From an uncultured Bacteroides sp. (GTDB lineage Bacteria > Bacteroidota > Bacteroidia > Bacteroidales > Bacteroidaceae): DNA of 64,000 bases. Shown here in pieces: positions 1,292 to 56,559 of this stretch. Numbering within the stretch: the first letter of the stretch is position 1; every line of letters begins with the position of its first letter. Made by a program: the position numbers and the translations under genes. The stretch spans positions 3,055 to 67,054 of the forward strand of contig CASENM010000040.1 of assembly GCA_949289295.1 (NCBI GenBank). Direction: 5' to 3'. Under the pieces are notes generated by a model. The model was not told where the DNA came from. It worked only from the letters and a program-made list of their open reading frames with translations, and made no database searches.

Positions 1292-1323
1292 TCTTGAGCC
1301 TTGTTTTTTACTTATTTGTGGTG

Positions 1324-1371
1324 CAAATGTACGAATAAAACTAGAACTGAGAAATTTTTTTGTTACCTTTG
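1324..1371. promoter_or_regulatory. Divergent pair of Bacteroidetes -7 promoter elements (ftsK / DUF5063 operon)
   Basis: TACATTTG on the - strand (1324-1331) and TACCTTTG on the + strand (1364-1371) match TAnnTTTG. Confidence 0.65.
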
Positions 1372-1395
1372 CGCTTCAATTAAGAGCAGAATAAA

Positions 1396-2013: not shown

Positions 2014-2032
2014 CTTTAAATTTCAGAACAGG

Positions 2033-2653: not shown

Positions 2654-3831
2654 AATCCGTTTTTTTGAAATCCGGGAAGGAAGAGTCCCTCAAACGGTTC
2701 CATCCTTGGGTGTTTTCCGGGGCCATTGCCCGTGTGGAAGGTGATCCGGAGGAGGGCGAGGTGGTTGATGTATATACTTCCGGTAAAGAGTTTGTGGCAC
2801 GTGGCCATTATCAGGTAGGGAGTATTGCGGTGCGCGTCCTGACATTTGTTCAGGAGCCTGTAGACCGGTCGTTCTGGGTACGTCGGCTTACTGTAGCGCG
2901 TGATATGCGCCGGGCACTTGGGCTTGTCGGGAATCCGCAAAGCGATACTTATCGTCTGGTGCATGGTGAGGGAGACAATCTGCCGGGGCTGATTATTGAT
3001 ATATACGGCCACACTGCCGTGATGCAGGCACATTCAGCCGGTATGCATCTTGACCGTATGGAGGTGGCCGATGCTTTATGTGAGGTAATGGGCGATGATG
3101 TGGAGCATATTTATTATAAGTCGGAGACAACTCTTCCTTTTAAGGCTGACCTGATGAGTACGGAGAATGGTTTTCTGAAGGGAGGCAGTCCGGAAAATGT
3201 GGCTATGGAAAATGGCTTGAGGTTTCATGTGGACTGGTTGAAAGGACAGAAAACCGGTTTCTTTGTTGACCAGCGTGATAACCGGGCATTGCTGGAGAGA
3301 TACTCAGCAGGACGCCATGTGCTCAATATGTTCTGTTACACAGGAGGTTTTTCATTTTATGCCTTACGTGGAGGGGCTGCACTGGTCCATTCAGTGGACA
3401 GTTCGTCGAAGGCCATTGATTTGACCAGACAGAATGTGGCGCTGAATTTCCCCGGCGATACTCGTCATGAGGCTTTTGCGGAAGATGCATTCAAGTTTCT
3501 CGACCGTATGGATAACCAGTATGACTTGATTGTGCTGGATCCGCCTGCTTTTGCCAAACACAGGGATGCCTTGCGCAATGCCTTGCGCGGCTATACCAAG
3601 CTCAATGCGAAGGCTTTCGAAAAAATCCGTTCGGGAGGGATTCTGTTCACGTTCTCCTGTTCGCAGGTAGTGAGCAAGCAGGACTTCCGTAATGCGGTGT
3701 TTACGGCTGCCGCGCAGAGTCGCCGTAGTGTACGCATTCTACACCAGCTGACCCAACCGGCTGACCATCCGGTGAATATCTATCATCCGGAGGGTGAGTA
3801 TCTGAAAGGGCTTGTGCTTTATGTGGAATGA
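2650..3831 (+). CDS. rlmI: 23S rRNA m5C1962 methyltransferase RlmI-like (PUA + SAM MTase)
   Basis: HPWVFSGAI, GQKTGFFVDQRDNR, FCYTGGFS, LDPPAF, FSCS motifs; ATG 2650 overlaps the upstream stop. Confidence 0.9.
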   Translation: MKSVFLKSGKEESLKRFHPWVFSGAIARVEGDPEEGEVVDVYTSGKEFVARGHYQVGSIAVRVLTFVQEPVDRSFWVRRLTVARDMRRALGLVGNPQSDTYRLVHGEGDNLPGLIIDIYGHTAVMQAHSAGMHLDRMEVADALCEVMGDDVEHIYYKSETTLPFKADLMSTENGFLKGGSPENVAMENGLRFHVDWLKGQKTGFFVDQRDNRALLERYSAGRHVLNMFCYTGGFSFYALRGGAALVHSVDSSSKAIDLTRQNVALNFPGDTRHEAFAEDAFKFLDRMDNQYDLIVLDPPAFAKHRDALRNALRGYTKLNAKAFEKIRSGGILFTFSCSQVVSKQDFRNAVFTAAAQSRRSVRILHQLTQPADHPVNIYHPEGEYLKGLVLYVE

Positions 3832-3869
3832 TTCTTGTCGGGCTTGACATCCGGTGATTTTATATCAAC

Positions 3870-3916
3870 TAGGCCACAGTATGCAAATGTAAGAGATTTT
3901 TGCGTACTGTGGCCTA
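3870..3916. terminator. Bidirectional hairpin between convergent genes
   Basis: 18-bp inverted repeat TAGGCCACAGTATGCAAA / TTTGCGTACTGTGGCCTA (one G-U pair). Confidence 0.7.
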
Positions 3917-3939
3917 TGATATAGGGCATTTTCCCTTTT

Positions 3940-4998
3940 CTACCTCATCTGTATTCCCGTTATCTCTCCGATATACATCTTGTAGGATTTTGAAGGATCA
4001 ATGGCTTGATTGAGCGATTTCAGCTCTTCGGCCGTCATTTCGTTCGACATTGCTTTCTTGCAGGAAATCGTGATGCTTGCTTGGGCATTTCCGGGCATGT
4101 AGAATGATACGGTGTATAATTCGGCATGTTCCGCAAGGGCACTGATGGCTATTTTACTTTGGTCGACCAGAATGTAGGCCACGTCCTTATTGAAAAGTTT
4201 TCCGAAGCCTCCCCAGTTTTCAGCCTTGATTTCTACTTCTTCTTCATTGGCGGTAAGAGTGATTCTTCCTTTTTCTGCTATCTCGTTCAGGTTAGCCGGA
4301 AGTTGTTCTATCTTGGCGTCTTTCAGCTCGCCGGACGGGTTTGCAGAAGAGACGGAAACTCGTGCGGGAACTTGCATGGCATTGGCTTCTATCATATTTG
4401 CTGCATTCGTCAGGGTATGTTGTCTGATGATGTCGGAAGCCGACTTGAACAGTGCATCTTTCAGGTCGATTGTTTCTCTTCTGAATTTTCCGCAGATAGG
4501 GGCCAGCTTTGTCTTTTTCTTGTTGAGTGCCATATCATCGGTAATCCATTCTTCAGCTGTATATTTCTGGCCTCCGTCACGGTTTTCGTCATACCAGTAT
4601 CTGATACGTGTCATGGTCATGCGGCATACGCCGTCCCCTGTATGGATGAGATACTGGTAATAGATACGTGTGCGGTCGAGCGACAGGGCACTCGACGAGA
4701 ATACCACATATTCTTCGGCCGAGACGGCTATGTCGCCTTTCGCCTTATCGGTGTAGACTACCCGGCTCGTCAGTTCTCCTTCCGGTTTGAAGCGTTCGTT
4801 GGCCCATCCGAGCATAAGGTCGTATAGTTCCGGTTGGGAAATAGATTCCACTTTTATTTCTGTCCCGAAACTGATTTTTCCATCATCGTCCAAAGTGACG
4901 GCTCCGGCGAGATATTTAGGGTCGGAGTTGTTCTTCTTGTCATCGGCAAATCCCAGCAAGGGGCATAGTGCCAGCAGGATAGATAAAATTATTTTCAT
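3940..4998 (-). CDS. Secreted DUF4468-like domain protein
   Basis: Signal peptide MKIILSILLALCPLLGFA; KYLAGAV...FSSSALSLDRTRIYY...IRYWYDE resembles Bacteroides DUF4468 proteins. Confidence 0.65.
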   Translation of the reverse strand: MKIILSILLALCPLLGFADDKKNNSDPKYLAGAVTLDDDGKISFGTEIKVESISQPELYDLMLGWANERFKPEGELTSRVVYTDKAKGDIAVSAEEYVVFSSSALSLDRTRIYYQYLIHTGDGVCRMTMTRIRYWYDENRDGGQKYTAEEWITDDMALNKKKTKLAPICGKFRRETIDLKDALFKSASDIIRQHTLTNAANMIEANAMQVPARVSVSSANPSGELKDAKIEQLPANLNEIAEKGRITLTANEEEVEIKAENWGGFGKLFNKDVAYILVDQSKIAISALAEHAELYTVSFYMPGNAQASITISCKKAMSNEMTAEELKSLNQAIDPSKSYKMYIGEITGIQMR

Positions 4999-32199: not shown

Positions 32200-32238
32200 C
32201 AAACAAAAAGGGCTGCCGTAAAGTACGACAGCCCTTTT
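32200..32238 (-). terminator. trp attenuator terminator
   Basis: - strand GGGCTGTCGTA-CTT-TACGGCAGCCC followed by TTTTTGTTTGT, between the leader ORF and trpB. Confidence 0.88.
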
Positions 32239-32423: not shown

Positions 32424-32508
32424 ACTTTTTCCGGATTTTTTTTGTCATATATGAGAATTATGGTATTTTTCGCGTACAATTTTTGTCAGACCCTTAAATT
32501 TGAATTGT

Positions 32509-32979
32509 ATGAAAACAAATGTATGTACAGTTGTTATGTTTGTCTTGATATTCTTACTGCTTATAGCATTGTTATGTTGTGATAATAATTGGTCAGTAGA
32601 GCAATTTAAGAATCATGCTACTGATGTATTTATTATAATAGCATCTATAATAATAGTGCTTTTTGTGGTGTTTCTTGCTTGTTGCCATTGTCAGAATGGG
32701 ACAATGGAAATGTTTTTCTCAAATCTTAAAAAGAATTCTTCATCTTCAGAAAAAAGGGAAGTCCTTAAAGCATATGTTGAATCTCAGGGCAAGAATGAAT
32801 TTATAAAGTATGCTATAGAGCATGATAAGCTGGATGACTTTGTGTCTTTGAACAATGTTTCATCGGATGGACAGAGTGAGATGGAAAAGAGAATAAAAAG
32901 TCTGGAAGAGAAAATAGAAAGCCTGAATAAGAGAATAACAAGCCTAGAAAAAAATAATGAATACCCACATTTCTTTTAA
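32509..32979 (+). CDS. Hypothetical AT-rich protein with 2 TM helices and a C-terminal coiled coil
   Basis: Two hydrophobic stretches (VVMFVLIFLLLIALL; VFIIIASIIIVLFVVFLA); heptad tail EMEKRIKSLEEKIESLNKRITSLEK; visibly lower GC than its neighbours. Confidence 0.7.
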   Translation: MKTNVCTVVMFVLIFLLLIALLCCDNNWSVEQFKNHATDVFIIIASIIIVLFVVFLACCHCQNGTMEMFFSNLKKNSSSSEKREVLKAYVESQGKNEFIKYAIEHDKLDDFVSLNNVSSDGQSEMEKRIKSLEEKIESLNKRITSLEKNNEYPHFF

Positions 32980-33061
32980 TTATTAGACATATATCGAATA
33001 AAGTTTTAGAATGTTGACAGCCAACGTCCCGTTCCTTTAGATTTATAATTAATGAACATTT

Positions 33062-33976
33062 ATGGAAGAGATTATATCAATTGATAAAGCCGATGTTTAT
33101 AGAATTATGCTATTGGTTTTTGTCATTATAGGTTTTTTCTTTGCTTTCTTTCATGCGGCATCTATAGAAATGAGAAGAGTAAGCAGTCTCAATAAGTTGG
33201 AAAAAGATTTGTTTTGGATTATTGCTTTTGCTACTGTGATAGCAGTTGTCTTATTCTTGCTGACTTTCGGATTTGCTGATTTCCATAAAATAAATTTTCC
33301 TTTCGGCCGTTTCTCTACAGATATGGGCGATTGGGGTGATTTCGCCACTTGTGTGACGGGAATTTTTACTTTCATTTCCGTTCTCTTGGCATTCAATGCG
33401 TTTAAAAGCCAACAGCTTGCCTTAAGAAGAAATTCATTTGATTCTATTTTTGTCCAACTGTTTGCCCATCATATCAAATTGTATGAGAAAATCTCTAAAA
33501 AAGATGAGGGCAGAATTTTTTTAGATTACTATACAAAGCTTAAGGAGAGAATTCGTGACGGAAAGATGAATGATGAAAATGACATCCGTGAGGTATGGGG
33601 TTGTTTTAAAAATAATAGCGACAAACTTGTTGAATATGAGAATCTGAAGAATTATTTCAAATATATTTATCATGAAGTCAGCATTATCCGCGAAAATGAG
33701 GAGTCGGGGCTTCTGACAAGAGAAATTGCGAAGAAATATGTTCTTCTTATTCAGGCTCAAATGAACAATTATGAATTGCTTTGTTATTTGCTTAATCAGT
33801 ACGAATATTATTATTTCGGGCAAAAGGGATTGGTTAACAAGGAGCGTCAGAAAAATTATTATACATATCTCAGGAAGAATGATTTTTTCAAAGATTTGAA
33901 TCAAAGTTCGAGTTTTGAGAATGTAGTGCAACAATTGAAGAAGGCTTCTCGTTTGGGAGACAGCGGACCGCTGTAA
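33062..33976 (+). CDS. Membrane protein with a putative phage abortive-infection (putAbiC-like) domain
   Basis: 3 predicted TMs; GDWGDF...GIFTFIS..., FVQLFAHH, NYFKYIY, KKYVLLIQAQMNNYEL match my recollection of the G.FGD / F..L / YFR.LY / Y..ILRAQLS..EL pattern of that family; AT-rich. Confidence 0.62.
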   Translation: MEEIISIDKADVYRIMLLVFVIIGFFFAFFHAASIEMRRVSSLNKLEKDLFWIIAFATVIAVVLFLLTFGFADFHKINFPFGRFSTDMGDWGDFATCVTGIFTFISVLLAFNAFKSQQLALRRNSFDSIFVQLFAHHIKLYEKISKKDEGRIFLDYYTKLKERIRDGKMNDENDIREVWGCFKNNSDKLVEYENLKNYFKYIYHEVSIIRENEESGLLTREIAKKYVLLIQAQMNNYELLCYLLNQYEYYYFGQKGLVNKERQKNYYTYLRKNDFFKDLNQSSSFENVVQQLKKASRLGDSGPL

Positions 33977-33992
33977 TTTCATCGGAGAAGAT

Positions 33993-34000
33993 TATTTTTG
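33993..34000 (+). promoter_or_regulatory. -7 promoter element of the alkylation-repair gene
   Basis: TATTTTTG 20 bp upstream of ATG 34021. Confidence 0.5.
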
Positions 34001-34020
34001 TGTATTTTTATAGTATTCAA

Positions 34021-34734
34021 ATGGAAGAATTCAAGATTGACGGCCTGACCGTACGTGAGCATCTGTTGGAACTGGCCGAACGAGGAAACCGGAAATTCAC
34101 CGAAAGCCTGCATCCCGGAGTGGAGCATATCCTGGGTATCCGTTTGCCTGACCTGAGGCAATTGGCAAAGCGCATCGCCAAGGGAGACTGGGAGACCTAT
34201 CTGGAAAATGCTGGCGACGATTATCTGGAAGAGCGGATACTTCAGGGACTGGTGCTGGGCTATATCAAACCCGACGAGGACATAGAAACCTATCTGCACC
34301 GTGTCACGAAGTTCGTGTGGATTATCCGGAGCTGGTCGGAATGCGACACGTTCAAGTTTGCCGGGGGGAAGGCGTATTTCCGGAAGCATGAGACGCGTTT
34401 CTGGGAATATCTCAAAGAATGGCTGAAGTCATCGGGCGAGTATGAAGTGCGTTTCGGGGTGGTGCGCATGATGGAATGTTTCATTGACGAAGCTCATCTC
34501 GGCGAGATGTTCGTCTGCTTCGAGCGGATCCGCCACGAAGGATATTATGTAAAGATGGCGGTGGCTTGGGCACTTTCGGTCTGTTTCGTCAAGTTTCCGG
34601 AGCGGACGATGGACTACCTGAACCGTTCGGCACTCGACGATGACACCTATCACAAAACGTTGCGGAAGATACTGGAGTCGTATCGGGTTTCGGCGGAGGA
34701 CAAAGAACGAATCCGGCGGATGAGGAGGAAATGA
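34021..34734 (+). CDS. DNA alkylation repair protein (AlkD-like HEAT fold)
   Basis: LGIRLPDLRQLAK, EERILQG, SWSECD, YEVRFGVV, YYVKMAVAWALS. Confidence 0.85.
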   Translation: MEEFKIDGLTVREHLLELAERGNRKFTESLHPGVEHILGIRLPDLRQLAKRIAKGDWETYLENAGDDYLEERILQGLVLGYIKPDEDIETYLHRVTKFVWIIRSWSECDTFKFAGGKAYFRKHETRFWEYLKEWLKSSGEYEVRFGVVRMMECFIDEAHLGEMFVCFERIRHEGYYVKMAVAWALSVCFVKFPERTMDYLNRSALDDDTYHKTLRKILESYRVSAEDKERIRRMRRK

Positions 34735-34775: not shown

Positions 34776-34837
34776 AAAACGCTTCGGCGTTTCGGTTAAA
34801 ACGTCTAGGCGTTTTGATTGAAACGCCGAAGCGTTTT
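34776..34837. repeat. Triple-hairpin 22-bp-period intergenic element
   Basis: AAAACGCTTCGGCGTTTC ggtt AAAACGTCTAGGCGTTTT gatt GAAACGCCGAAGCGTTTT. Confidence 0.9.
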
Positions 34838-43979: not shown

Positions 43980-44645
43980 ATGAGAATACATTTAAAAACG
44001 ACTTCTAATGAGTACGTAGTCCCCTTCAATTATCAGCCCAAATTAGTAGGTACTCTTCATAAATGGTTGGGGATAAATAATGAAGATCATGGGAATATCT
44101 CGTTATATTCTTTTTCATGGTTGCAGAAAGGAGAAATGGTAAGGACAGGCTTTAATTTTCCTGACGGTGCCTGTTGGTTTATAAGTTTCTATGATGAGGA
44201 CAAGATGAGGCAGGTAGTGAAACGGATCTTGGAGAATCCGGAAATTTTCTCCGGAATGGTTGTTTCTGATGTAGTTATAGAAGAAACTCCTGATTTGTCG
44301 GCCCGGAGACTATTTTATTTGGGGAGTCCGATATTCATCAAGCAATCTGACCCGGATACAGGAGTGCGGCAATACACTTTTGACGATAAAGAGGCGAATG
44401 GCCTGATGACCCAGACTTTACGTCATAAGATGAAAATGGCCGGATTGCCTTCTGACGAGACATTGAATGTATCTTTTGATTTGAGTTATACAAAGCGCAG
44501 GACCAAGTTTCTGATGTATAGAGGGGTAAGTAACCGGGCGAATATGTGTCCTGTGCTGATTGACGGGAAGCCGGAGACGAAAGCTTTTGCCTGGAATGTG
44601 GGCATCGGAAATTCTACAGGTATTGGATTTGGTTCAATTTATTGA
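43980..44645 (+). CDS. cas6: CRISPR endoribonuclease Cas6
   Basis: N-terminal VPFNYQ...LHKW, H...SLYSFS; C-terminal G-rich loop GIGNSTGIGFG. Confidence 0.93.
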   Translation: MRIHLKTTSNEYVVPFNYQPKLVGTLHKWLGINNEDHGNISLYSFSWLQKGEMVRTGFNFPDGACWFISFYDEDKMRQVVKRILENPEIFSGMVVSDVVIEETPDLSARRLFYLGSPIFIKQSDPDTGVRQYTFDDKEANGLMTQTLRHKMKMAGLPSDETLNVSFDLSYTKRRTKFLMYRGVSNRANMCPVLIDGKPETKAFAWNVGIGNSTGIGFGSIY

Positions 44646-45217
44646 TGGTTAATATGCTATACGTTGTAAAATATATTGGGAAGTTCGGTTTTATCAAACC
44701 ATGGACTGCCGTTCGTGACGGGAAAACCTATAGTCAGCAGTTTCTGACTCCTTCTGTGATTGAAGGAATCGAGAAAAAACTCTTTCCAGACATGCTGAAA
44801 TGTAATGGAGAAATAAAGAGAATAAAAAGATACAAGCTCCGTTATTCGGCTATAGACATGCAGCAGGAACAGATACACCCTCGCGGATGGACCTTCAATT
44901 CAAAATCGAAGACAATGTCACGTTTGCGGTCGGTTCTTTTAAGGGGAGTGATGCTGGATCCGGTGCTGTTGCTGGCATTTGACAATTTGTGTGATGCACA
45001 GACAGCAATGGCACAGCACATCTGTCTGTGCAGGAATGAGGACGTTTTATTGCCGGAAGAGGATGTGATTGTCATGAATGAACAGGAATTTCAAGAAGAA
45101 AAAGGTTTTGAACTTCGGTTTGGAAAGTCGGGAAATTCTTTTTTAGTCGGTTATAACCGTTTTAATGGCCAACCCATGTATGGCTGGTTGGAAATAGACG
45201 GCGTTTCAGTCTTATAG
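44645..45217 (+). CDS. cas5: Divergent Cas5-like RAMP
   Basis: N-terminal YIGKFGFIKPWTAV...TYS..FLTPSVIEGI resembles the Cas5 N-terminus; C-terminal CLCRNED at the G-loop position; located within the cas operon. Confidence 0.65.
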   Translation: MVNMLYVVKYIGKFGFIKPWTAVRDGKTYSQQFLTPSVIEGIEKKLFPDMLKCNGEIKRIKRYKLRYSAIDMQQEQIHPRGWTFNSKSKTMSRLRSVLLRGVMLDPVLLLAFDNLCDAQTAMAQHICLCRNEDVLLPEEDVIVMNEQEFQEEKGFELRFGKSGNSFLVGYNRFNGQPMYGWLEIDGVSVL

Positions 45218-45219
45218 TT

Positions 45220-47352
45220 ATGGATGATTATCGGAACATATTGGCCAAGCATGAGGACAGTGGCGGACTGCCATTGGTTACGCATCTGGAAAGTGTGGCG
45301 TGTGTTGCCGGACGGATAGCGGCCAAAAACGGAATGGATGTCCGTATTGCCCGCAGAGGGGCTGTCTTGCATGACATAGGCAAAGTGAGTCCTTTGTTCC
45401 AACAGACGTTGAAGCATGGATATGTGCGTATGCCTGGATTCATATTCCGTCATGAAATCGCTTCCTTGTTTTTCCTTTCTTTATTGGACGATTTGGAGAA
45501 AGATGTGGTTATCGATATGATTGCGGCTCATCATAAATCCATTTACGATGATGTGAGAAGTTTGGGACTGCTGGATTTGGATGGATATGAGGACAGTTTT
45601 GGAATCCATTCCGAACGATTTGAAGAATGGAGTCCGGTCGCGTTGGATATATTGGAACATTTTGACTTTCCGGTTCATCCTGTCGGTCTGGAAGAGGCAC
45701 GGTCGAATTATGAGTATGCGGTTTCGCATTGTGAAGGTCTGAAAGCTGGATATTCTTTATGGAAAGGATTGCTGATGGCTTCCGACCAGATGGCTTCCGC
45801 TTTGGAGACAGTTGACGGACAAATGGTGAAGAAGCTTTTTGTCTGTCCGGATTTGTCATTCTATGATCGGGAAAACAATCTTTATCCCTTGTCATTGACA
45901 AGTGTTGATGATTCAAGGGGACATACACTGGTGACAGCTCCTACAGGTGCCGGTAAAACAGATTTCCTGATGCGCCGTTGCAAGGGACGTGTATTTTATA
46001 CATTACCTTTTCAGGCCTCGATTAATGCGATGTATGATCGGTTTAAAGAAGATCTGAAAGACACGGATGCGCAAATTCATTTGTTGCATGCGGCTTCCAA
46101 TCTTAAAGTTCAGGACGGAAAAGTTGAAGAACGAATCATGCAGCGTCATGTGGGAGCTTCTATCAAGGTTCTTACACCGCATCAGATGGCTTCTATTGTT
46201 TTCGGAGTGAAGGGTTATGAAGCGATGATGCTTGATTTGAAAGGATGTGACGTGATTCTGGATGAGATACATACCTATTCCAGTACAATCCAGGCCATAG
46301 TACTTCGCATTATAGAGATCCTGAGAGTTATCGGATGCAGAATCCATGTCGGTACGGCAACCATGCCTCAGGTGCTTTATGACAAGATTTTGTCTTTGTT
46401 GGGAGGAGCCGAGAAAGTGTATGAGGTAAAACTGACTGATGATGTATTGCGTTCATTCAACCGCCATATTGTACATAAGTTGTCAAGTATGGATGATTCG
46501 TATCAGATACTTGGTTCGGATATAAATGACCGGAAGAAGATTTTAATTGTGTGCAATCAGGTCAGACGTGCGCAATCGGTTTATTTGTCTTTAAAAGAAC
46601 AATACCCGGATGTCCCGATGATGTTGATTCATAGTCATTACAGACGGATTGACAGACAAGGTTTGGAGGTAGACTTGAAAGAGGTTTACAATCAGCTTCA
46701 GGAAGCATGTATTGTGGTGTCTACGCAAGTGGTGGAAGTGAGTCTGGACATTAGCTTTGATGTGATGATTACCGAATGTGCTCCTATTGATGCTTTGATC
46801 CAGCGTTTCGGACGTATCAACAGAAAAAGGACTCTGGAAACGATAGGTAAAATGAAACCGGTATATGTCATTGCGCCTTATGCAGGAAAAGATGCTTTGC
46901 CTTACGATCCGGAAGTGCTTCAGAGAAGTTTTGACGTATTGCCGGATAATGGGATTATGGAAGAAACGGAAGTACAGTCGATGCTGAATAAAGTTTATCC
47001 GGATGAGAATTTTATGAATATCGACTATTCGGGGGCAATATTTGTGAACGGGAAGTGGATGATGAAAGAATTGAGACATAATTCAAAATCAGCTTTGTTG
47101 GAAACTCTTGACATCAATTCTGCCACATGTATCGTCCAGTCAGATGAGGAGCGGTATGTCAGGAATGAATCCGGAACACGGAGTGAACTGGAGATACCGG
47201 TAAGTTATCGTTCTGTCGCTTATTTGGGCTTGAGAATGAACAAACACGGGACTTGCCCTTATGTGATTCCTGATGAGGCTTACGATAGTGAGCTAGGGCT
47301 GTTGCCTGATAAATTGAGAGACGAATCAAATAAAACTTATGACTTCTTATAA
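45220..47352 (+). CDS. cas3: Cas3 HD nuclease-helicase
   Basis: HD domain (THL, LHDIGK, RHE, AHH, ASD) fused to an SF2 helicase (APTGAGKT, DEIH, TAT, STQVVEVSLDI, QRFGRINR). Confidence 0.96.
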   Translation: MDDYRNILAKHEDSGGLPLVTHLESVACVAGRIAAKNGMDVRIARRGAVLHDIGKVSPLFQQTLKHGYVRMPGFIFRHEIASLFFLSLLDDLEKDVVIDMIAAHHKSIYDDVRSLGLLDLDGYEDSFGIHSERFEEWSPVALDILEHFDFPVHPVGLEEARSNYEYAVSHCEGLKAGYSLWKGLLMASDQMASALETVDGQMVKKLFVCPDLSFYDRENNLYPLSLTSVDDSRGHTLVTAPTGAGKTDFLMRRCKGRVFYTLPFQASINAMYDRFKEDLKDTDAQIHLLHAASNLKVQDGKVEERIMQRHVGASIKVLTPHQMASIVFGVKGYEAMMLDLKGCDVILDEIHTYSSTIQAIVLRIIEILRVIGCRIHVGTATMPQVLYDKILSLLGGAEKVYEVKLTDDVLRSFNRHIVHKLSSMDDSYQILGSDINDRKKILIVCNQVRRAQSVYLSLKEQYPDVPMMLIHSHYRRIDRQGLEVDLKEVYNQLQEACIVVSTQVVEVSLDISFDVMITECAPIDALIQRFGRINRKRTLETIGKMKPVYVIAPYAGKDALPYDPEVLQRSFDVLPDNGIMEETEVQSMLNKVYPDENFMNIDYSGAIFVNGKWMMKELRHNSKSALLETLDINSATCIVQSDEERYVRNESGTRSELEIPVSYRSVAYLGLRMNKHGTCPYVIPDEAYDSELGLLPDKLRDESNKTYDFL

Positions 47353-47354
47353 TT

Positions 47355-48656
47355 ATGATAACATCAGTAATAGGTCGGATTTTCTTGGATGCGTACAATG
47401 AAAGGGAGCATACAGGTTATGATGCGAAAACCTTTTTCATTGAGAAATACTATCCGTTGTTTTTTGATGGTAATAAATATATGCAGTGGGTACAAAACTC
47501 CCCTTTTGTACAAATGAAAAGTGGACAAAAGGTTGAGACATTGTCATCGGATGAAAGACGCGAAAAACTGGAAGAACTGATTTGCAAGATTCAAAACGGT
47601 ACGAAAGATGCCAGTGTGGCTATCGGATATTCTGCCTCCGACGAAAAGGGATATGCTACAACATCGGGGCAGGTAACCAGTTTAGAAATCAAGGTGACCC
47701 ATGATGAAGTTTATCTGTCATGGATTGGAGCTTCTCTAGGTGTCGGCGTTAAAGGAGGACTCAGTATTTTGTTCAGTAATCCTTTGTTATTGCTGAGTAT
47801 ATATGATGGGTGGGCTTTCTATCGTGCTGCCTTAGATAACAATCAGAAACTGAAGGGGAATCAGATAGCATCATGGAATGGTCAATGGCTTGCGCACCGA
47901 TACGACAAGCGTGCGTTTGATGCGGAAAATCCGATGGCAGACTTCAACCCGTATGTCTCAGACAAGGATGCCTCAATGAGTGTGGCTGTGCAGTCGTGGA
48001 CAAAAATTCTGATTAATCTTTCACAGAACTTTTCAGGGCAGAACCTGTTGGGCTATGTTTATAGTCTGGGACAAACTAATATCACGGTTGGTTTTATCCC
48101 TTTTATACTTTTGCAGATAAGGCGTCCGATAGATTTGTATATACGTTTTTTCGGAATGAAAAATTGGAGACAGGCTGAAGAACTTTATGGTACAGCTTTC
48201 GGATTTGACAGGGCATGTCAAGCTGGGGCGATAGGCTTGAAGGCACTTGAACCAAAAGGACTGAAAGATTATATGGAAAAAGGGAAGTTACCTAAATATA
48301 CAGACAATGAAGAACAGACAATAAAATTTCATACTTATCAAACTTGGATTATGGCTATGTTGAACAACGAAGACTTATGGGTGCAATCGGAAAGTTTTGC
48401 ACATGTATTGAAAGAATATTCTGCCGGCAGCAAAAATGCCAAGACGGATAGAACCAATAAGGTGAAGGCTTTATTGGGAGCGCTGAATAAGAAAGAATTT
48501 ATCAGAAATTTAACTGAAATTATCTCAGAGGCTGGCGATGTCAGCAAACTTATGGAAACGGCAAAGCTAGTCAATGATATGCCAGCCGATAATGTTCCGT
48601 ATTTCCTGACATTGATCAGATTCCATTATGCCGCAATTATTAATCTTAACAAATAA
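47355..48656 (+). CDS. cas8: Putative Cas8 large subunit (divergent, 433 aa)
   Basis: Position between cas3 and cas7; the only candidate for the large subunit; helical C-terminal domain; family assignment by context. Confidence 0.65.
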   Translation: MITSVIGRIFLDAYNEREHTGYDAKTFFIEKYYPLFFDGNKYMQWVQNSPFVQMKSGQKVETLSSDERREKLEELICKIQNGTKDASVAIGYSASDEKGYATTSGQVTSLEIKVTHDEVYLSWIGASLGVGVKGGLSILFSNPLLLLSIYDGWAFYRAALDNNQKLKGNQIASWNGQWLAHRYDKRAFDAENPMADFNPYVSDKDASMSVAVQSWTKILINLSQNFSGQNLLGYVYSLGQTNITVGFIPFILLQIRRPIDLYIRFFGMKNWRQAEELYGTAFGFDRACQAGAIGLKALEPKGLKDYMEKGKLPKYTDNEEQTIKFHTYQTWIMAMLNNEDLWVQSESFAHVLKEYSAGSKNAKTDRTNKVKALLGALNKKEFIRNLTEIISEAGDVSKLMETAKLVNDMPADNVPYFLTLIRFHYAAIINLNK

Positions 48657-48661
48657 ATTCT

Positions 48662-49768
48662 ATGAATCCATTTATCTATTTGCGTGCGTTGAAACACGCT
48701 GAACATACTGTTTTCTGTGTAGAAGATGGTCAGAAAACTTATTATGATCCACAATTCAACAGGTACTCACCTTATTCCAGCGGGCAGCAGGTGAAACGTT
48801 CCATCTTACAGTCTGTAACTGACATCTTGAATGCTCCGATGGCACCAATTACATTTAATTATAGCATTACGAAAAACAACGAGTTGGAAAATAAAGAACC
48901 ATGGTCTCCTTGTGATCCGGCTTATGTGGATCAGTTGTTGGGCGGTTGGATGAGAGCAAAGACGGCTGCAGGTAAAACAAAAAATGATGGCGACAAGGAT
49001 AATTCTAAAGAAAATAATGTGATTAAACGCAGAAGCCCTCTGTCGATATCCGCAATGCGCCCAATTCATCCGTTGTTGGCTGGTGTGGACAGTGAGAATC
49101 TTACTTTTGACCGTAGTGACCGTCCGGACTATCATCCTGTAAATGTCAGGAGAGCCGGTAGCGATAAACTTTTGACGGAAGATGAGATAGAAGCTTTCTT
49201 GTCGGACAATGGGCGTACTCTTTCACGAAGGGTTTGGATTCCTGACAATAAAAGAGCTACGGGGCTTTTTGTTTATGACGTGGCCATTGATTTGCGTACG
49301 CTCTTCTGTGTCTCGACAAACCAGCATGAACCGGAAATCTCTAGAGATATGATTGATGAACTTAAATCCAAAGGATGGGTTGAAAGCGAGAATGTGTTTG
49401 GAAAATGCCTTGTATTGCCTGAGGCAGAGCGTAAGAAAGTAATCCCTGCATTGGCGGATGCGCTGATTGATTGGAGAATTACATCGAACCAGGCCCGTAC
49501 ATTTAGTTTGATGGAAACGTTGGCTATTGCAGTGAGTGACAATGCAAATGCTATAGCAGCAGCCATACGTGCGAAATTGATTGATGATAGCGAGAAGCCC
49601 AAGGCGAAACCTATTGTGGATGCAAATGCCGGAGCTGATTTGTTTGTGACTTTGCCATGTGCAAGTTATATTGTGACAGAATGTGAATCTCCGGATGCTA
49701 TTGAAAACGCGAAGCAGAATCTGATCAAGCGAATGTCGGATTTTGATTATGAGAATCAGAATTGTTGA
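48662..49768 (+). CDS. cas7: Cas7 backbone subunit
   Basis: PYSSGQQVKRSI, DQLLGGWM, RRSPLSISAMRP, GLFVYDVAIDL follow the Cas7 RRM pattern. Confidence 0.85.
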   Translation: MNPFIYLRALKHAEHTVFCVEDGQKTYYDPQFNRYSPYSSGQQVKRSILQSVTDILNAPMAPITFNYSITKNNELENKEPWSPCDPAYVDQLLGGWMRAKTAAGKTKNDGDKDNSKENNVIKRRSPLSISAMRPIHPLLAGVDSENLTFDRSDRPDYHPVNVRRAGSDKLLTEDEIEAFLSDNGRTLSRRVWIPDNKRATGLFVYDVAIDLRTLFCVSTNQHEPEISRDMIDELKSKGWVESENVFGKCLVLPEAERKKVIPALADALIDWRITSNQARTFSLMETLAIAVSDNANAIAAAIRAKLIDDSEKPKAKPIVDANAGADLFVTLPCASYIVTECESPDAIENAKQNLIKRMSDFDYENQNC

Positions 49769-49783
49769 TTGTTGGATTTAAAT

Positions 49784-49821
49784 AAGTCCTTCTGACCTTC
49801 TCTCTATGGAAAGAAGGACTT
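49784..49821 (+). terminator. Hairpin between cas7 and cas4
   Basis: AAGTCCTTCT / AGAAGGACTT perfect 10-bp IR followed by T-rich sequence. Confidence 0.45.
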
Positions 49822-49837
49822 GTCTTTCTAGTTTTAT

Positions 49838-50344
49838 ATGCTTACAGGAACTCATTTCAATTATTACCAAGTATGTAAACGTAAGCTTTGGTTGTTTGCC
49901 AATGGCATAAACATGGAGCACACTTCAGACTTGGTGCTTGAAGGCAGGCTTATTCATGAAGATTCCTATCCTCAACGCTCGGACAAATATGAGGAAATAG
50001 AACTGGACGGGATAAAGGTTGACTTTTATGATCCGAAGCGGAAGGTGATTCATGAAATCAAGAAATCGAACAAGGTGGAGGCGGCTCATGAATGGCAGCT
50101 GAAATATTACATCTATGTGTTTGAACGGAATGGGATAGAAGGTGTGACTGGGGTGCTGGAATACCCCACACTGCGGAAAACGCAAGAAGTGTTGTTGAGT
50201 GACGTGGATAGGGAGCGTATAAAGGAGATGGAGGCAGACATACAGCGGATTATTTCCGGTGACGATTGTCCGTCTTTACAGAAGAGAGGCATTTGCCGGA
50301 ATTGCAGTTATTTTGATTTTTGTTATAGCGGAGAGGAGGAGTAA
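49838..50344 (+). CDS. cas4: Cas4 exonuclease
   Basis: CKRKLW, RecB motifs VDFY..HEIKKS, QLKYY, C-terminal C...[10 protein letters not shown] Fe-S cluster. Confidence 0.96.
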
Positions 50345-51360
50345 TGAAAAAGACATTTTATTTGTTCAATCCCGGGATGCTGGAACGGAAGGATAATACC
50401 TTGAAGTTCACTCCGTGTGCAGATGACGGTGAACGGCCTGACGCGAATGCACAGTCGCGTTATTTGCCGGTAGAAGATATCAGCGAATTTTATGTGTTCG
50501 GTTCGTTGCGGGCAAACAGTGCCTTGTTCAACTTTCTGGGGCAGAAGGACATTGCCGTGCATTTCTTTGACTATTACGAAAACTATACAGGTTCGTTCAT
50601 GCCTCGCGACAGTCTGCTTTCTGGCAAGATGTTGCTGGCGCAGACTTCTCATTATCAGAATCAGAAAAAGCGTATGGCAATCGCCCGGAAGTTTATAGAA
50701 GGAGCCGCATACAATATGGTGAAGAATCTGCAGTATTACAACCGCCGGGGAAAAGACATGGAGGACATCATGGAACTGATGAACAAGCTGTCTGCCCAAA
50801 TACCTGATATGCAGACAACGGAAGAGCTTATGGGGATAGAAGGTCAGATCAGGCAGTATTATTATGAGGCGTTTGACTTGATAATCAATGATTTTGAGAT
50901 GGGCAACCGTACAAAACGGCCGCCTCAGAATGAGGTTAACGCCCTGATTTCGTTCGGCAATATGGTTTGCTATACGATTTGTCTGCGTGCCATTCATCAG
51001 ACTCAGTTGAATCCGACCATCAGCTATCTGCACAAACCGGGAGAACGCCGTTATTCGCTGGCGCTGGATATAGCGGAAATATTCAAGCCTATAATAGTGG
51101 ATAGGGTAATATTCAAAGTATTGAACAGGAAAGAGATTCAGGAAAAACATTTTGACAGAAAACTGAACAAATGTTTGCTGAATACAGCAGGAAAGAAGAT
51201 ATTTGTGAAAGCTATAGAGGACAGGCTGGGAGAGACCATCAAGCACCGCTCATTGCACCGTTCGGTGAGCTACCGCCATCTTGTAAAACTGGAGTGCTAT
51301 AAGCTGGCCAAGCATCTGCTGTCGATGGAAGAATATAAACCTTTTAAGATGTATTGGTGA
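50344..51360 (+). CDS. cas1: Cas1 integrase (I-B type)
   Basis: [43 protein letters not shown]. Confidence 0.97.
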
Positions 51361-51623
51361 TGTACGTGATTTTGGTTTATGATTTCGGTGAGAAGCGTGT
51401 CGGCAAGATGCTCAAGCTCTGCCGTAAGTATTTGAACTGGATACAGAATTCTGTCTTTGAGGGTGAGATTTCGGAAGCCCGTCTGAAAGAACTGTTGATG
51501 CAGAGTGACAAGTTTATGAACAAGAACGAGGACAGTATAATCATTTTCAGCGGTCCTTCCCAGTCGTCAATGGAGAAAAGGATTGTGGGTAAGGAACGTT
51601 CAACATTAGATATCTTTTTGTGA
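51360..51623 (+). CDS. cas2: Cas2
   Basis: [25 protein letters not shown]. Confidence 0.97.
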   Translation: MYVILVYDFGEKRVGKMLKLCRKYLNWIQNSVFEGEISEARLKELLMQSDKFMNKNEDSIIIFSGPSQSSMEKRIVGKERSTLDIFL

Positions 51624-51840
51624 ATGCAAACAGGTTGTCGGCCATACTATAGTTTCCCGTTTTACTAGGGGTTATTGTGGTTAGAGTTCTATGACTCGTT
51701 GTAACACAAATAGTTGGAGATATGTCGACTCTCAATATATTTTTTATCATTGAGGGTCGACATATTTCTCATTATTTTTTCGTACATTTGCATTCGCCAA
51801 ACCATTTAAAATCAGTGGAGATACTTTTTTAGAGTGGAGG
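51624..51840 (+). promoter_or_regulatory. CRISPR leader
   Basis: AT-rich, 217 bp; 17-bp IR ATATGTCGACTCTCAAT (51720-51736) / ATTGAGGGTCGACATAT (51749-51765); -7 element TACATTTG at 51783-51790. Confidence 0.85.
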
Positions 51841-54800
51841 CTTTTAATCGTACCATTTGGAATTGAAACTTTGGTTTCGTTTTGGTTTCCGTTTGGTTTC
51901 CGTTTCTTTTAATCGTACCATTTGGAATTGAAACACACTTCTCTTATGCGGTCGTCCGCCAGCTTGTGCAGCTTTTAATCGTACCATTTGGAATTGAAAC
52001 GTACTCATCCTTTGTTACGCCCGCAACCTCTTCGGGCTTTTAATCGTACCATTTGGAATTGAAACTTGCTATATCTGCAAGGGAGCGAATGCCAGCGCAA
52101 CTTTTAATCGTACCATTTGGAATTGAAACCGCATTTCGTTTGATTCGCTCAAAGGAACAGGTAACTTTTAATCGTACCATTTGGAATTGAAACGTCTGTA
52201 AAATAGAACTACTGACACTTTGATACACTTTTAATCGTACCATTTGGAATTGAAACCAATGATTAACAAGGGGACGGAAGAGATTAACAAACTTTTAATC
52301 GTACCATTTGGAATTGAAACGTCGTACGCACTTGATTGTTGTTATCTGGATGTCCTTCTTTTAATCGTACCATTTGGAATTGAAACATACTCTTTCTCGT
52401 TGGTTACTCTGTCGGCTGCGGCCTTTTAATCGTACCATTTGGAATTGAAACAAGCACCTGGCGGAACGCGGCCTCCATATTGGACGGACTTTTAATCGTA
52501 CCATTTGGAATTGAAACATGTATTCTCGGCGCTCAGGACGCTAAAGGAAGCCCCTTTTAATCGTACCATTTGGAATTGAAACGTTTGAGCTGGAACGATT
52601 TCCATTATTACAGCCACTTTTAATCGTACCATTTGGAATTGAAACACAGTTATTTCAAGATACTTGCGGACGGTTCCTTCGCTTTTAATCGTACCATTTG
52701 GAATTGAAACGCATTAAAATCATTTTTTTCATAATCTATTGTTTCTTTTAATCGTACCATTTGGAATTGAAACTTCTTCTGGAGCAAGGGAGTCAACGAC
52801 TACCTGAACCTTTTAATCGTACCATTTGGAATTGAAACAGGATAGGCAGCCAAGGGTGGACGTGCTGGACGGCTTTTAATCGTACCATTTGGAATTGAAA
52901 CGATTGCAAGTTCACTTAACTGCAATGCTCAGCAGGCTTTTAATCGTACCATTTGGAATTGAAACAATACTTCATTACTCATCTTTTCTATTCGAGAAAA
53001 AGACTTTTAATCGTACCATTTGGAATTGAAACAGATAACTTTGAATTTTTTAGGAGGCGGGCAAAGACTTTTAATCGTACCATTTGGAATTGAAACTGAT
53101 TTTCTTCATTTCTTCCTGCGGCGCATCCGTCTTTTAATCGTACCATTTGGAATTGAAACCGTCAAGCTTCTGATATACCGGGGTCACTGCCACTTTCTTT
53201 TAATCGTACCATTTGGAATTGAAACTAAGGTATACGTGGACGGATACGGATGGAAAGAACTTTTAATCGTACCATTTGGAATTGAAACTATTGTCTTTCC
53301 CCTTGTCGGGTGTCCGAACAGACTTTTAATCGTACCATTTGGAATTGAAACTACGCTTCAAGGTATTCCCTCATGCCCGATGGCAACCTTTTAATCGTAC
53401 CATTTGGAATTGAAACTTGTAACGGAACCATCGGCGTTAATAGTAATCAAATCACTTTTAATCGTACCATTTGGAATTGAAACATATATAAAGGACCTGC
53501 TGAACAAACGAAACGACACTTTTAATCGTACCATTTGGAATTGAAACTGGATACGCCTTGTGCTTGGGCGCTGCCGGTGCTCTTTTAATCGTACCATTTG
53601 GAATTGAAACTGGATACGCCTTGTGCTTGGGCGCTGCCGGTGCTGCATTTTAATCTTACAAAATGGAATTGAAACAACGAGGAAGGTGTAATTCCGGAGT
53701 ACGACATTCCTTTTAATCGTACCATTTGGAATTGAAACTGGATACGCCTTGTGCTTGGGCGCTGCCGGTGCTGCTTTTAATCGTACCATTTGGAATTGAA
53801 ACAGCAAGGCAGCAAGTTAACAGTAAGTACAAACAGCTTTTAATCGTACCATTTGGAATTGAAACTGCAGAAACGCCAATTTATGAAGGAGGGATGTCAT
53901 CTTTTAATCGTACCATTTGGAATTGAAACTGGAATGCGGCTTCAAAGTATCCGGTTACCACTTCTTCTTTTAATCGTACCATTTGGAATTGAAACAAGGG
54001 AAATGGCAAGGACACAAAACAACTACGAGCTTTTAATCGTACCATTTGGAATTGAAACGCCTTTCGACATTGTCCCGTGAAACCGGAACGGCTCTTTTAA
54101 TCGTACCATTTGGAATTGAAACACCGTCCGGGGCGAACTCTTTTTCCGCCTCCTCGCACTTTTAATCGTACCATTTGGAATTGAAACCAAGTTCCATTCT
54201 GTCACCGGCTTTGCGTGAGCGTGCTTTTAATCGTACCATTTGGAATTGAAACGATAGTGAGGAAGACAAGGGTAATGACCTACCTGCTTTTAATCGTACC
54301 ATTTGGAATTGAAACCAGTTAGCCCGTTATTGGGGTATCTAACCCCGACCTTTTAATCGTACCATTTGGAATTGAAACCGGCTATTGCGGCAATCGTAAT
54401 GTACTTGTTCATCTTTTAATCGTACCATTTGGAATTGAAACTAATTTCCTGATTGCCATTTGTCTTGATGACGTCCCTTTTAATCGTACCATTTGGAATT
54501 GAAACGAACAACCGTGAACATTTCCGAATACCACGCCTCCCTTTTAATCGTACCATTTGGAATTGAAACTGCGTAAGGCCCAGGTACAAGGCCAGGCAAT
54601 CCGGCTTTTAATCGTACCATTTGGAATTGAAACAACTGAAGAAAGAGGGGAATCAGGCTGCACACGGGCTTTTAATCGTACCATTTGGAATTGAAACCTC
54701 TTCCCCTGAGGACGTTGTATCAGCTTTCGTACCCTTTTAATCGTACCATTTGGAATTGAAACGTTCTTGAACTCTTGTTTTTTTAAGATTAATTCTCTTT

Positions 54801-56559
54801 TAATCGTACCATTTGGAATTGAAACGCGTATGAGTGATTACTATAAGAAGAAGTATGACCTTTTAATCGTACCATTTGGAATTGAAACTTACTCAGAAGA
54901 AACACCTGAGGCAGCAGGTGCAGGACTTTTAATCGTACCATTTGGAATTGAAACGCCTATAAAACGACTCGACATTACTGCGATCGCGAACTTTTAATCG
55001 TATCATTTGGAATTGAAACGGACATAGACCTGGATAAGCGGCCTTTTCCTTATCTTTTAATCGTACCATTTGGAATTGAAACGGGCTAGCTCTATCAGAT
55101 TGTATTCTTTCTCCAACTTTTAATCGTACCATTTGGAATTGAAACAATCAACGCCGTTGCGGATACCATATTTCCGATTTCTTTTAATCGTACCATTTGG
55201 AATTGAAACTTTCTCCGTATTCGTCACTGATTATACAGGTGACGGTCTTTTAATCGTACCATTTGGAATTGAAACTTGCTTCCGGAGAGTTCTCCTCCCC
55301 TTCCGTATCCTCTTTTAATCGTACCATTTGGAATTGAAACTCAGACTCATGCGGAGTATTACCTCGACATCCCAGCTTTTAATCGTACCATTTGGAATTG
55401 AAACACTTTAAATATTTCTATCGTTTTAATCCCTACCAATCTTTTAATCGTACCATTTGGAATTGAAACATTGTATTGCCTCGGCTTTGATGCTTTTCAG
55501 AGCCTTTTAATCGTACCATTTGGAATTGAAACCAGGACATAAGATGGGAGCCCGGCGTTGACATTGCTTTTAATCGTACCATTTGGAATTGAAACGGCGA
55601 TAAACGCCACGGTTACGGCGTTGGAACAGCACTTTTAATCGTACCATTTGGAATTGAAACGTCAATACAACGCCTACATTATCATCCTGCCCGGACCTTT
55701 TAATCGTACCATTTGGAATTGAAACCAATTAAATTATGGAATAAACGTTAATTATCAAAACTTTTAATCGTACCATTTGGAATTGAAACGATGGAGACGA
55801 TAGCGGAATTGCAGGGGACTGTAACTTTTAATCGTACCATTTGGAATTGAAACACAGTTCCCCGTATAAGAACGAGATGTTCAGGGATCTTTTAATCGTA
55901 CCATTTGGAATTGAAACTAGCCTCCTTGATCGCGTTGTCATTGCACTGCGGACTTTTAATCGTACCATTTGGAATTGAAACCACGTCACGGTAATAGATC
56001 CCCGTCTTTTCCGGCCTTTTAATCGTACCATTTGGAATTGAAACGAATGTGCTTCATCGCCTTCACGTAGAAGTCCTGCTTTTAATCGTACCATTTGGAA
56101 TTGAAACATATTCTTTCTCCCCTCTGTACTGGAATTGATGTACACTTTTAATCGTACCATTTGGAATTGAAACTCGGAAAGGAACGCACGCGGGCGCACG
56201 CATACGCGCCTTTTAATCGTACCATTTGGAATTGAAACTTACCTGCTCAGACCAGATCGGAACAGGCTGGAAGCTTTTAATCGTACCATTTGGAATTGAA
56301 ACGCAGGATAATTAGAAATGACTCTAAGGCTGTCATCTTTTAATCGTACCATTTGGAATTGAAACTGGCCAGAGCCGTCCTTCAGAAATTTCTCTATCGT
56401 TTCTTTTAATCGTACCATTTGGAATTGAAACCCAGCAGCTCGTTCTGCTTGCGTACGTCGGCAATCTTTTAATCGTACCATTTGGAATTGAAACTCGGAA
56501 ACAGACGGGTTACAGAATACGAGTTCGTGACTTTTAATCGTACCATTTGGAATTGAGGC
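51841..56559 (+). CRISPR. CRISPR array, 74 repeats / 73 spacers (34-38 nt)
   Basis: 29-nt repeat CTTTTAATCGTACCATTTGGAATTGAAAC, counted manually; variants R29 (53647-53675), R50 (54991-55019, one C>T) and terminal R74 ending GAGGC; the ATTGAAAC 3' end, leader position and degenerate end give + orientation. Confidence 0.99.

Follow-up and report, generated by a model that had tools for sequence, protein, structure and literature searches.

A candidate two-gene membrane module of the AbiC/AbiP kind between the trp operon and an AlkD-like gene of an uncultured Bacteroides

What is a pair of AT-rich membrane-protein genes doing between a trp operon and a DNA repair gene? We asked this for a stretch of 64,000 nucleotides (nt) from an uncultured Bacteroides sp. 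(assembly GCA_949289295.1, contig CASENM010000040.1, positions 3,055 to 67,054), referred to as the window, in which two co-oriented open reading frames (ORF1 and ORF2) lie between the divergent trpB-trpE-trpG-trpD operon and an AlkD-like DNA-alkylation repair gene (Table 1). An earlier note, made from the DNA letters, had read this cassette as a candidate anti-phage module in which ORF2 resembles putative abortive-infection (putAbiC) proteins and ORF1 is its partner. We consider it slightly favoured, at a probability of about 0.55, that this insert was acquired horizontally, moves by recombination and represents a two-gene membrane module of the AbiC/AbiP kind, most likely directed against phages or other invading DNA. 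What appears to be new here is the coupling of an AbiC/P-type gene to a second membrane protein, ORF2 itself being distantly related to the known AbiC/P proteins.

ORF2 and the putAbiC superfamily

A search of 5.8e9 proteins with ORF2 returned 86 relatives and gave a family alignment of 87 sequences. All four motifs that had been picked out from the single sequence (GDWGDF at residues 89-94, FVQLFAHH at 130-137, NYFKYIY at 197-203 and YVLLIQAQMNNYEL at 226-239) are present and sit on invariant or nearly invariant columns of this alignment. The DWGDF motif is found at the outer end of the third transmembrane (TM) helix, and its residues W91, G92 and F94 are nearly invariant. The three TM helices proposed for ORF2, as well as the two TM helices and the coiled coil proposed for ORF1, were borne out by hydropathy, by AlphaFold2 models and by the a/d heptad pattern. 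The ORF2 model, which was built from the family alignment, is all-helical with a mean predicted local distance difference test (pLDDT) score of 81 (83-94 over most of residues 150-300), and shows three TM helices, a long helix (residues 88-148) reaching from the third TM helix into the cytoplasm, and a helical bundle. The charge pattern is in keeping with an N-out, C-in topology with a cytoplasmic helical domain, and with this topology the S125-F126-D127, F130, H137, KNYFKYIYHE and QAQMNxxEL blocks would all be cytoplasmic. H204/E205 are likewise among the invariant residues.

Next, we compared ORF2 and its relatives with the Pfam profile putAbiC (PF16872). The match of ORF2 covers residues 193-245 and positions 4-53 of the 80 in the profile; with a score of 16.6 bits (E 0.012) it is the best putAbiC match in the whole 2.85-Mb genome. 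Four other members of the close subfamily that were scanned reached 16.8-21.8 bits. The profile was matched at E<=0.01 by 75 of the 87 aligned family members. Four homologues with 40-50% identity to ORF2 (P0021, P0024, P0031 and P0046) lie above the putAbiC cut-off with 27-33 bits in the equivalent region, and phmmer connects ORF2 with P0021 at E 1.5e-57 (putAbiC 29.6 bits) and with P0024 and P0031 at E 9e-34 to 3e-29 (putAbiC 26.9 and 32.9 bits). Because these homologues match PF16872 over the same region, the link between ORF2 and putAbiC holds by transitivity, and at the level of sequence we regard ORF2 as a true, if peripheral, member of the putAbiC superfamily. The PADLOC AbiC model was matched weakly by 6 of the 87 relatives (best E 2.8e-4); for the phage-borne relatives the scores are 10-11 bits and fall in the domain behind the TM helices.

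A tblastn search of phage GenBank records returned one match, which is unannotated, no relative was found in the plasmid collection, and a 94% identical ORF2 occurs in a metagenome-assembled genome (uncultured Phocaeicola sp.). The PADLOC models, including the candidate PDC and HEC families, gave no match for ORF1, ORF2 or the 278-aa partner (aa, amino acids) of the related locus L083. The sequence profile search of the PDB with ORF2 was empty, and our literature search found no paper mentioning putAbiC or PF16872.

A second membrane gene upstream of ORF2 and its close relatives

ORF1 is laid out as a hairpin of two TM helices, a CCHC cluster at the inner end of the second helix, a linker of ~55 residues and, at the C-terminus, a leucine zipper whose a/d heptad is perfect (I129, L132, I136, L139, I143, L146). 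Its charge distribution suggests an N-in topology with the loop outside. The AlphaFold2 model is all-helical (pLDDT 61) and too poor for a fold search. In a word-indexed search of 5.8e9 proteins only three clusters of relatives were found (99%, 98% and 79% identity); where the locus could be checked, the 79% form proved to be that of L009-L012, which is the same trp/AlkD locus. A full phmmer scan of 1.84e9 representatives gave nothing beyond the orthologue plus one spurious match, a 3365-aa repeat protein (P0133) that we rejected as a homologue. Matches in the family libraries (Pfam, NCBIfam, PHROGs, PADLOC), e.g. LeoC at E 8e-4 and DUF3810, were likewise set aside as compositional coiled-coil and TM noise. 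Judged by these searches, ORF1 is a sequence orphan confined to the trp/AlkD locus.

For a wider view we inspected the gene immediately upstream of ORF2 relatives at ~90 loci, collected from genome, viral and metagenome collections and by exact-protein look-ups. Among relatives with at least 50% identity, every intact copy has a co-oriented gene 4-100 nt upstream, the product of which (140-330 aa) starts with one or two TM helices and continues as a charged region that is helical or a coiled coil. We counted nine distinct upstream-gene types in this group. The types seen were the ORF1 type, a 166-aa coiled-coil protein with one TM helix, six variants of a two-TM protein starting with MG[RK]xxKL (220, 229, 247, 278, 287 and 329 aa), and two short two-TM, Cys-cluster, coiled-coil proteins of 164 aa (L085) and 142 aa (L089), which come nearest to ORF1 in layout. 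The 166-aa gene is usually itself preceded by a gene of the MG[RK]xxKL family. N-terminal TM helices occur in 9 of 9 partner types, and under a strict architectural definition, with criteria set post hoc, six of the nine qualify compared with 1.2% of the ORFs in the genome of the window. The closest ORF2 relative outside the trp/AlkD locus (68% identity; L076/L077, 4001-4930) has no upstream partner. It carries an in-frame stop at about ORF2 residue 263 and is the sole partnerless copy among the relatives with at least 50% identity; this copy, which lies on a mobile element bearing PRTRC and YpsA, is probably decaying.

The order trp-ORF1-ORF2-AlkD is also present in metagenomic contigs of another species (L009-L012, L021), the proteins of which are 95% (trpB), 87% (trpE) and 87% (AlkD) identical to those of the window. 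We compared the window with L009 by synonymous divergence (dS) and its ratio to nonsynonymous divergence (dN/dS). The flanking genes trpB and AlkD gave dS values of 0.55 and 0.63 (dN/dS 0.04 and 0.12). Over its first 95 codons ORF1 shows a divergence close to that of these flanks, with a dS of 0.505 for the 5' part (dN/dS 0.29), compared with 0.099 for the 3' part of ORF1 (dN/dS 0.20) and 0.065 for ORF2 (dN/dS 0.23). The block at ~32792-34085 was thus swapped between the two species long after their split. With a dN/dS of 0.28 for the whole of ORF1 against its orthologue, ORF1 and ORF2 are both under purifying selection and therefore real genes. In L021, which is from the same species as L009 and is ~99% identical to it over the rest of the locus and the flanks, the 3' end of ORF1 and the spacer (L021 4800-5000, corresponding to window 32889-33085) have been replaced by non-homologous sequence, so that two unalignable alleles (35% identity) exist within one species. 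From the exchanged block and this replacement we conclude that ORF1 is mosaic and polymorphic and that its 3' end tends to travel with ORF2. A second comparison is offered by the loci L013 and L016, in which the ORF2 genes differ slightly (dN 0.034) and the upstream genes are very different, having only the last ~23 residues in common. Together with the pattern between window and L009 this fits a C-terminal helix that alone is matched to ORF2, but it fits equally a recombination breakpoint whose position is dictated by signals for the promoter or for translation.

Several observations weigh against reading the insert as a two-gene defence module. ORF2 stays under the gathering cut-off of PF16872 (16.6 versus 22 bits), it does not match the PADLOC AbiC model PDLC02343 at E<=1 (no protein of the whole genome does at E<=10), and its model has no structural neighbours in PDB or BFVD (best E 0.29-0.33). 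Of the resemblance to putAbiC that the earlier note had claimed, the profile link stands by way of the homologues, but not for ORF2 taken by itself, and the structure search added no match. Homology of ORF1 to the other partners was undetectable (hhalign probability 1%; phmmer E >3 in a database of ~4,500 sequences), so that the term 'conserved partner' rests on architecture. Six of the nine partner types form one MG[RK]xxKL family and are not independent observations; part of the partner signal is common descent of a two-gene unit rather than independent recurrence. The mismatch of the upstream genes of L013 and L016 speaks against a partner that is tightly co-adapted with ORF2 over its whole length. 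Relatives below 45% identity, including all phage-borne ones, are without a TM/coiled-coil partner, and since the phage copies are solitary a partner is not generally required by ORF2-type proteins. The immediate neighbours of the window cassette are housekeeping genes (trp and AlkD), and this locus is itself no defence island. Finally, a Vibrio cholerae gene annotated as AbiC gave no phage protection in the only recent test of a gene so annotated (bioRxiv 10.64898/2026.10.16.759536).

Much of this could be explained if ORF2 were a self-sufficient, single-gene AbiC-like protein, with ORF1 and the other upstream genes being unrelated, fast-evolving small membrane ORFs that share its transcription unit but play no role in its function. 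AbiC and AbiP are single-gene systems themselves (PMC13064643), distant relatives, in phages as well as in other Bacteroides, stand alone or beside genes for non-membrane proteins, ORF1 is an orphan, the partner types cannot be aligned with each other, and nearly identical ORF2 genes follow different upstream genes. We nevertheless regard this explanation as rather unlikely, as each intact close relative is preceded by the same architecture, in at least seven contexts (gaps of 4-100 nt), ORF1 is under purifying selection (omega 0.28 at dS 0.5), the 3' end of the upstream gene travels with ORF2 in two independent comparisons, and the sole partnerless copy is truncated. The expectations about a partner are thus answered in part: the architecture of a TM effector with a partner is constant in the close ORF2 subfamily but lacking among distant relatives, and the sequence family of ORF1 never occurs elsewhere, although its architecture recurs upstream of ORF2 relatives, with some of these pairs being located in defence islands.

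We also asked whether ORF1 might be a diverged protein of the MG[RK]xxKL family and rejected this (hhalign 1%; phmmer against the genome background E >3). A short similarity of the tails, SEMEKRIKSLEEKIE versus NEMDAKVRSLQDKID, has a pairwise E of 0.015 and is not significant.

Two further types of ORF2-like genes were observed in other arrangements. A type of 362-365 aa with 32-35% identity, found in Bacteroides ndongoniae/ilei (L023-L025, L102-L108, L110), always lies behind a gene for a conserved 105-aa soluble helical protein 73 nt upstream (L023 ~4295-4612). This protein has no Pfam match and may be a different partner for the ndongoniae/ilei branch. On three metagenome contigs (L127, L128, L135; ~1941-3537) an ORF2-like gene of 253-257 aa with ~29% identity was found 29-31 nt downstream of tatC (Pfam TatC, E 2e-60), a housekeeping-looking context for a putAbiC-like protein.

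The insertion site and its transcription signals

We next compared the site with those of related genomes. Six congeners have trpB and the AlkD-like gene side by side in divergent orientation, separated by 308-368 nt, compared with 1863 nt in the window; the cassette is therefore an accessory insertion, with an empty site in these six species. Relative to the closest empty-site genome (G015), homology ends at ~32457-32476 on the left and exactly at the AlkD start codon (34021) on the right. A search of 60 further genomes, 36 of them representing other species of the same genus and 24 from other families of the same order, turned up no copy of ORF1 or ORF2. The AlkD-like gene is present in 39 of 61 congeners. 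The GC content falls to 0.27-0.36 across the cassette; it amounts to 0.312 for ORF1, 0.344 for ORF2 and 0.326 for the whole insert, compared with 0.50-0.62 for the adjacent trp and AlkD genes and 0.474 for the whole window. ORF2-like genes are AT-rich at every locus (29-37% GC), whereas the phages that carry such genes are higher (41-45%). Neither an integrase nor inverted repeats nor a convincing target-site duplication flanks the insert, and no prophage surrounds the cassette in the window genome. An AT-rich, ATTTTTGT-like similarity at both junctions overlaps promoter-like boxes, and we do not claim it as a duplication. The picture of the locus given in the earlier note is confirmed here in its coordinates and ORF lengths, in the AT-rich composition and common orientation of the two ORFs between trp and AlkD, in the lack of an integrase and in the accessory rather than universal nature of the cassette.

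Table 1. Features of the insert and its surroundings in the window (positions are those of the 64,000-nt stretch)
Feature	Position	Strand	Basis or remark
AT-rich insert, ~1.56 kb	32458..34020	.	between trpB-side intergenic DNA and AlkD-like start codon; absent from congeneric species
Bacteroides-type -7 promoter-like box TAAATTTG	32495..32502	+	TAnnTTTG motif scan; 6 nt before ORF1 start codon; motif match only
ORF1, 156-aa orphan membrane protein	32509..32979	+	alternative TTG start at 32500
ORF1 transmembrane hairpin	32518..32679	+	hydropathy; TM1 ~residues 4-24, short acidic loop, TM2 ~residues 40-57
Recently exchanged block: ORF1 3' part, spacer, ORF2	32792..34085	+	sliding identity; 95-99% nt identity, flanks ~90%
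ORF1 C-terminal coiled coil, residues 122-149, predicted cytoplasmic	32872..32955	+	heptad; model helix 119-148
ORF1-ORF2 spacer, 82 nt	32980..33061	+	no TAnnTTTG box, no terminator
ORF2, 304-aa membrane protein	33062..33976	+	peripheral putAbiC (AbiC/P) superfamily member, from sequence
ORF2 membrane module	33101..33403	+	hydropathy and AlphaFold2; three TM helices, ~residues 14-33, 50-71, 93-114
ORF2 all-helical domain, predicted cytoplasmic	33404..33973	+	invariant S125, F126, D127, F130, H137; putAbiC-matching residues 193-245, nt 33638-33796
Second TAnnTTTG box TATTTTTG	33993..34000	+	motif scan; 20 nt before AlkD-like start codon
AlkD-like DNA-alkylation repair gene	34021..34734	+	conserved flank; orthologue has Pfam DNA_alkylation
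Strong intrinsic-terminator-like hairpin	34784..34829	+	20-pair stem, then T run; closes ORF1-ORF2-AlkD unit

Since the spacer between ORF1 and ORF2 has neither a promoter box nor a terminator, the two genes are likely to be co-transcribed. No terminator was found between ORF2 and the AlkD-like gene either. The simplest reading of these motifs is that one ORF1-ORF2 transcript is made, which may run on into AlkD. The AlkD-like gene may keep a promoter of its own; a box comparable to the one on its side of the cassette, TAATTTTG, is found in the empty site of G015.

On the other side of the cassette, a GC-rich hairpin of 15 pairs followed by a T run lies in the trpB leader on the strand of the trp operon (window 32206-32238, - strand). 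It is kept in empty-site congeners (83-87% identity in G015 and G021) and probably serves as an attenuator or terminator in the trp leader. A putative type I-B-like CRISPR-Cas operon with a long array, noted earlier ~10 kb downstream (window 43980-56000), is the one further defence locus in the vicinity.

Genomic setting of the relatives and the proposed role of the module

In order to gain insight into a possible role we looked at the surroundings of the ORF2 relatives. The close relative with a partner in L085 lies in a defence island with AbiH (E 1.8e-9) and a PD-T4-4_A-like ATPase (E 5e-33). In L016 the genes upstream of the ORF2-like pair form a compact, defence-island-like block (572-4737) with a PDC-S31/DUF2971 protein (E 1e-34), a leucine-rich repeat protein, an AAA_14/DUF4143 ATPase and a 499-aa CorA-like protein (PADLOC CorA, E 2e-82), the gene of which overlaps a convergent gene for a 181-aa nucleotidyltransferase. 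The pairs in L013 and L079 are situated at the edge of DNA resembling an integrative and conjugative element (ICE), marked by the coupling protein TraG. Recurrent location beside known defence genes or mobile elements thus holds for the close ORF2 relatives. In L013 (1-3737) a 1589-aa protein with a weak DO-GTPase2 match lies directly upstream of the TraG/type IV secretion coupling protein, and the end of the ICE-like region adjoins a conserved Fasciclin gene. Because several ORF2-like alleles with different upstream genes occupy it, this spot looks like a cargo hotspot. The phage-borne distant relatives are located behind a tail-fibre or an amidase/endolysin gene (a 'moron' position), on contigs that include phage genomes 93-96% complete. 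Adjacency to an amidase is a property of one distant ORF2 type only (L034, L095).

Some of these distant relatives stand directly behind an amidase and a lipoprotein gene in a lysis cassette, both proteins of the window are membrane proteins that have no enzymatic signature, and no structural match was found for ORF2. One might therefore suppose that the pair has no role in defence and that recombination has carried along leftover phage or ICE cargo with a function in lysis timing or the envelope (holin/antiholin-like), or else a membrane toxin and its immunity protein. This we judge very unlikely: with 304 aa and a conserved cytoplasmic domain of 190 aa ORF2 is unlike known holins, the close relatives are found beside AbiH, PDC-S31, CorA-like and PD-T4-4-like genes and not beside lysis genes, and the cassette has no prophage around it. 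Holins were judged by a size of ~70-150 aa, 1-4 TM helices, a short charged tail and an endolysin neighbour; ORF2 departs from this description, and no endolysin lies near the window cassette.

Another explanation is entry or superinfection exclusion, i.e. a membrane complex that stops incoming DNA (phage injection, conjugation or transformation) at the envelope while the cell survives. Superinfection-exclusion proteins such as lactococcal Sie2009, Imm and Sp of T4 and SieA of P22 are small to mid-size inner-membrane proteins encoded in prophage accessory-gene positions. Distant ORF2 relatives resemble them in occupying accessory-gene positions of phages, namely after tail-fibre or lysis genes as is typical of prophage exclusion genes, but we found no sequence relationship, and the conserved mass of ORF2 is mostly cytoplasmic. 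In addition, both ORF1 and ORF2 are integral membrane proteins, and relatives occur at the end of ICE transfer regions beside TraG. The V. cholerae gene annotated as AbiC cut natural transformation more than 1000-fold and thus blocks transformation, while the phages tested were unaffected (bioRxiv 10.64898/2026.10.16.759536). Lactococcal AbiC, however, acts after phage DNA replication, at the production of capsid protein (PMC13064643), and in ORF2 the invariant residues and the largest domain are predicted to be cytoplasmic and the external loops short. For these reasons we hold exclusion at the envelope to be unlikely, and return to a module of the AbiC/AbiP kind.

AbiC (Prf) with two TM helices and AbiP with one were grouped as 'AbiC/P' in a review of 2026 as their extramembrane domains superimpose (PMC13064643). 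In cells with lactococcal AbiC phage DNA replication is intact and the production of major capsid protein is lowered (PMC13064643). Resistance by AbiP needs its membrane anchor and a domain that binds RNA and single-stranded DNA independently of sequence, and the switch from early to late transcripts is disturbed (PMC13064643); the review knows of no biochemical mechanism for AbiC or AbiP (PMC13064643). Compared by description with AbiC of Lactococcus lactis, ORF2 is likewise predicted to begin with TM helices and to continue as an all-helical extramembrane domain, carries the putAbiC signature within this domain (sub-threshold in ORF2, above the cut-off in homologues), is encoded on mobile DNA and has no recognisable enzymatic domain (for AbiC: PMC13064643). 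It differs from AbiC in having three TM helices instead of two, in its host (Bacteroidota, whereas AbiC is from Firmicutes), in not matching the PADLOC AbiC model, and in that the gene of its subfamily always follows a second membrane-protein gene, whereas AbiC acts alone. The arrangement of genes in the close subfamily speaks for a unit of two genes. AbiP, likewise a membrane-anchored protein with an extramembrane domain, is our model for the proposed mechanism of ORF2; AbiP has one TM helix and ORF2 a predicted three, and any binding of nucleic acid by ORF2 is suggested by this analogy.

We propose that ORF2 would be anchored in the inner membrane with its conserved helical domain facing the cytoplasm. 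At the membrane this domain might, by analogy with AbiP and AbiC, act on phage nucleic acid or on a step of late expression, and so halt productive infection. ORF1 would be co-transcribed, and its cytoplasmic leucine zipper could pair with ORF2 so that ORF1 serves as an exchangeable regulatory or specificity subunit; such a role would account for the much quicker sequence turnover of ORF1 compared with ORF2, and for the joint movement of its 3' end with ORF2 in recombination. Going further, one may tentatively imagine, as a possibility that we rate clearly below even odds, that the Bacteroidaceae have an unnamed two-component family of AbiC/P type, in which a moderately conserved effector with three TM helices is gated by a hypervariable, modular subunit with two TM helices and a leucine zipper. 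Only the C-terminal helix of this subunit would stay matched to the effector, its membrane and linker part being swapped by recombination and thereby setting the recognition of phage or incoming DNA. If this were true, the specificity of the system would be determined by the partner, as its fast-evolving component.

Every defence-system finder includes AbiC, which dates back to 1992, and its mechanism and fold family are still unsolved (PMC13064643). The locus described here is a clean natural case in which a small, defence-like cassette passes from one species to another by homologous recombination through its conserved housekeeping flanks, with no integrase. It belongs to a branch in the abundant gut Bacteroidaceae that current defensome censuses of gut bacteria miss, as PADLOC does not see it and its Pfam scores stay under the threshold. 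Should the two-gene reading be true, the separable and quickly diversifying partner would be a genetic handle on how AbiC/P-type membrane proteins sense infection.

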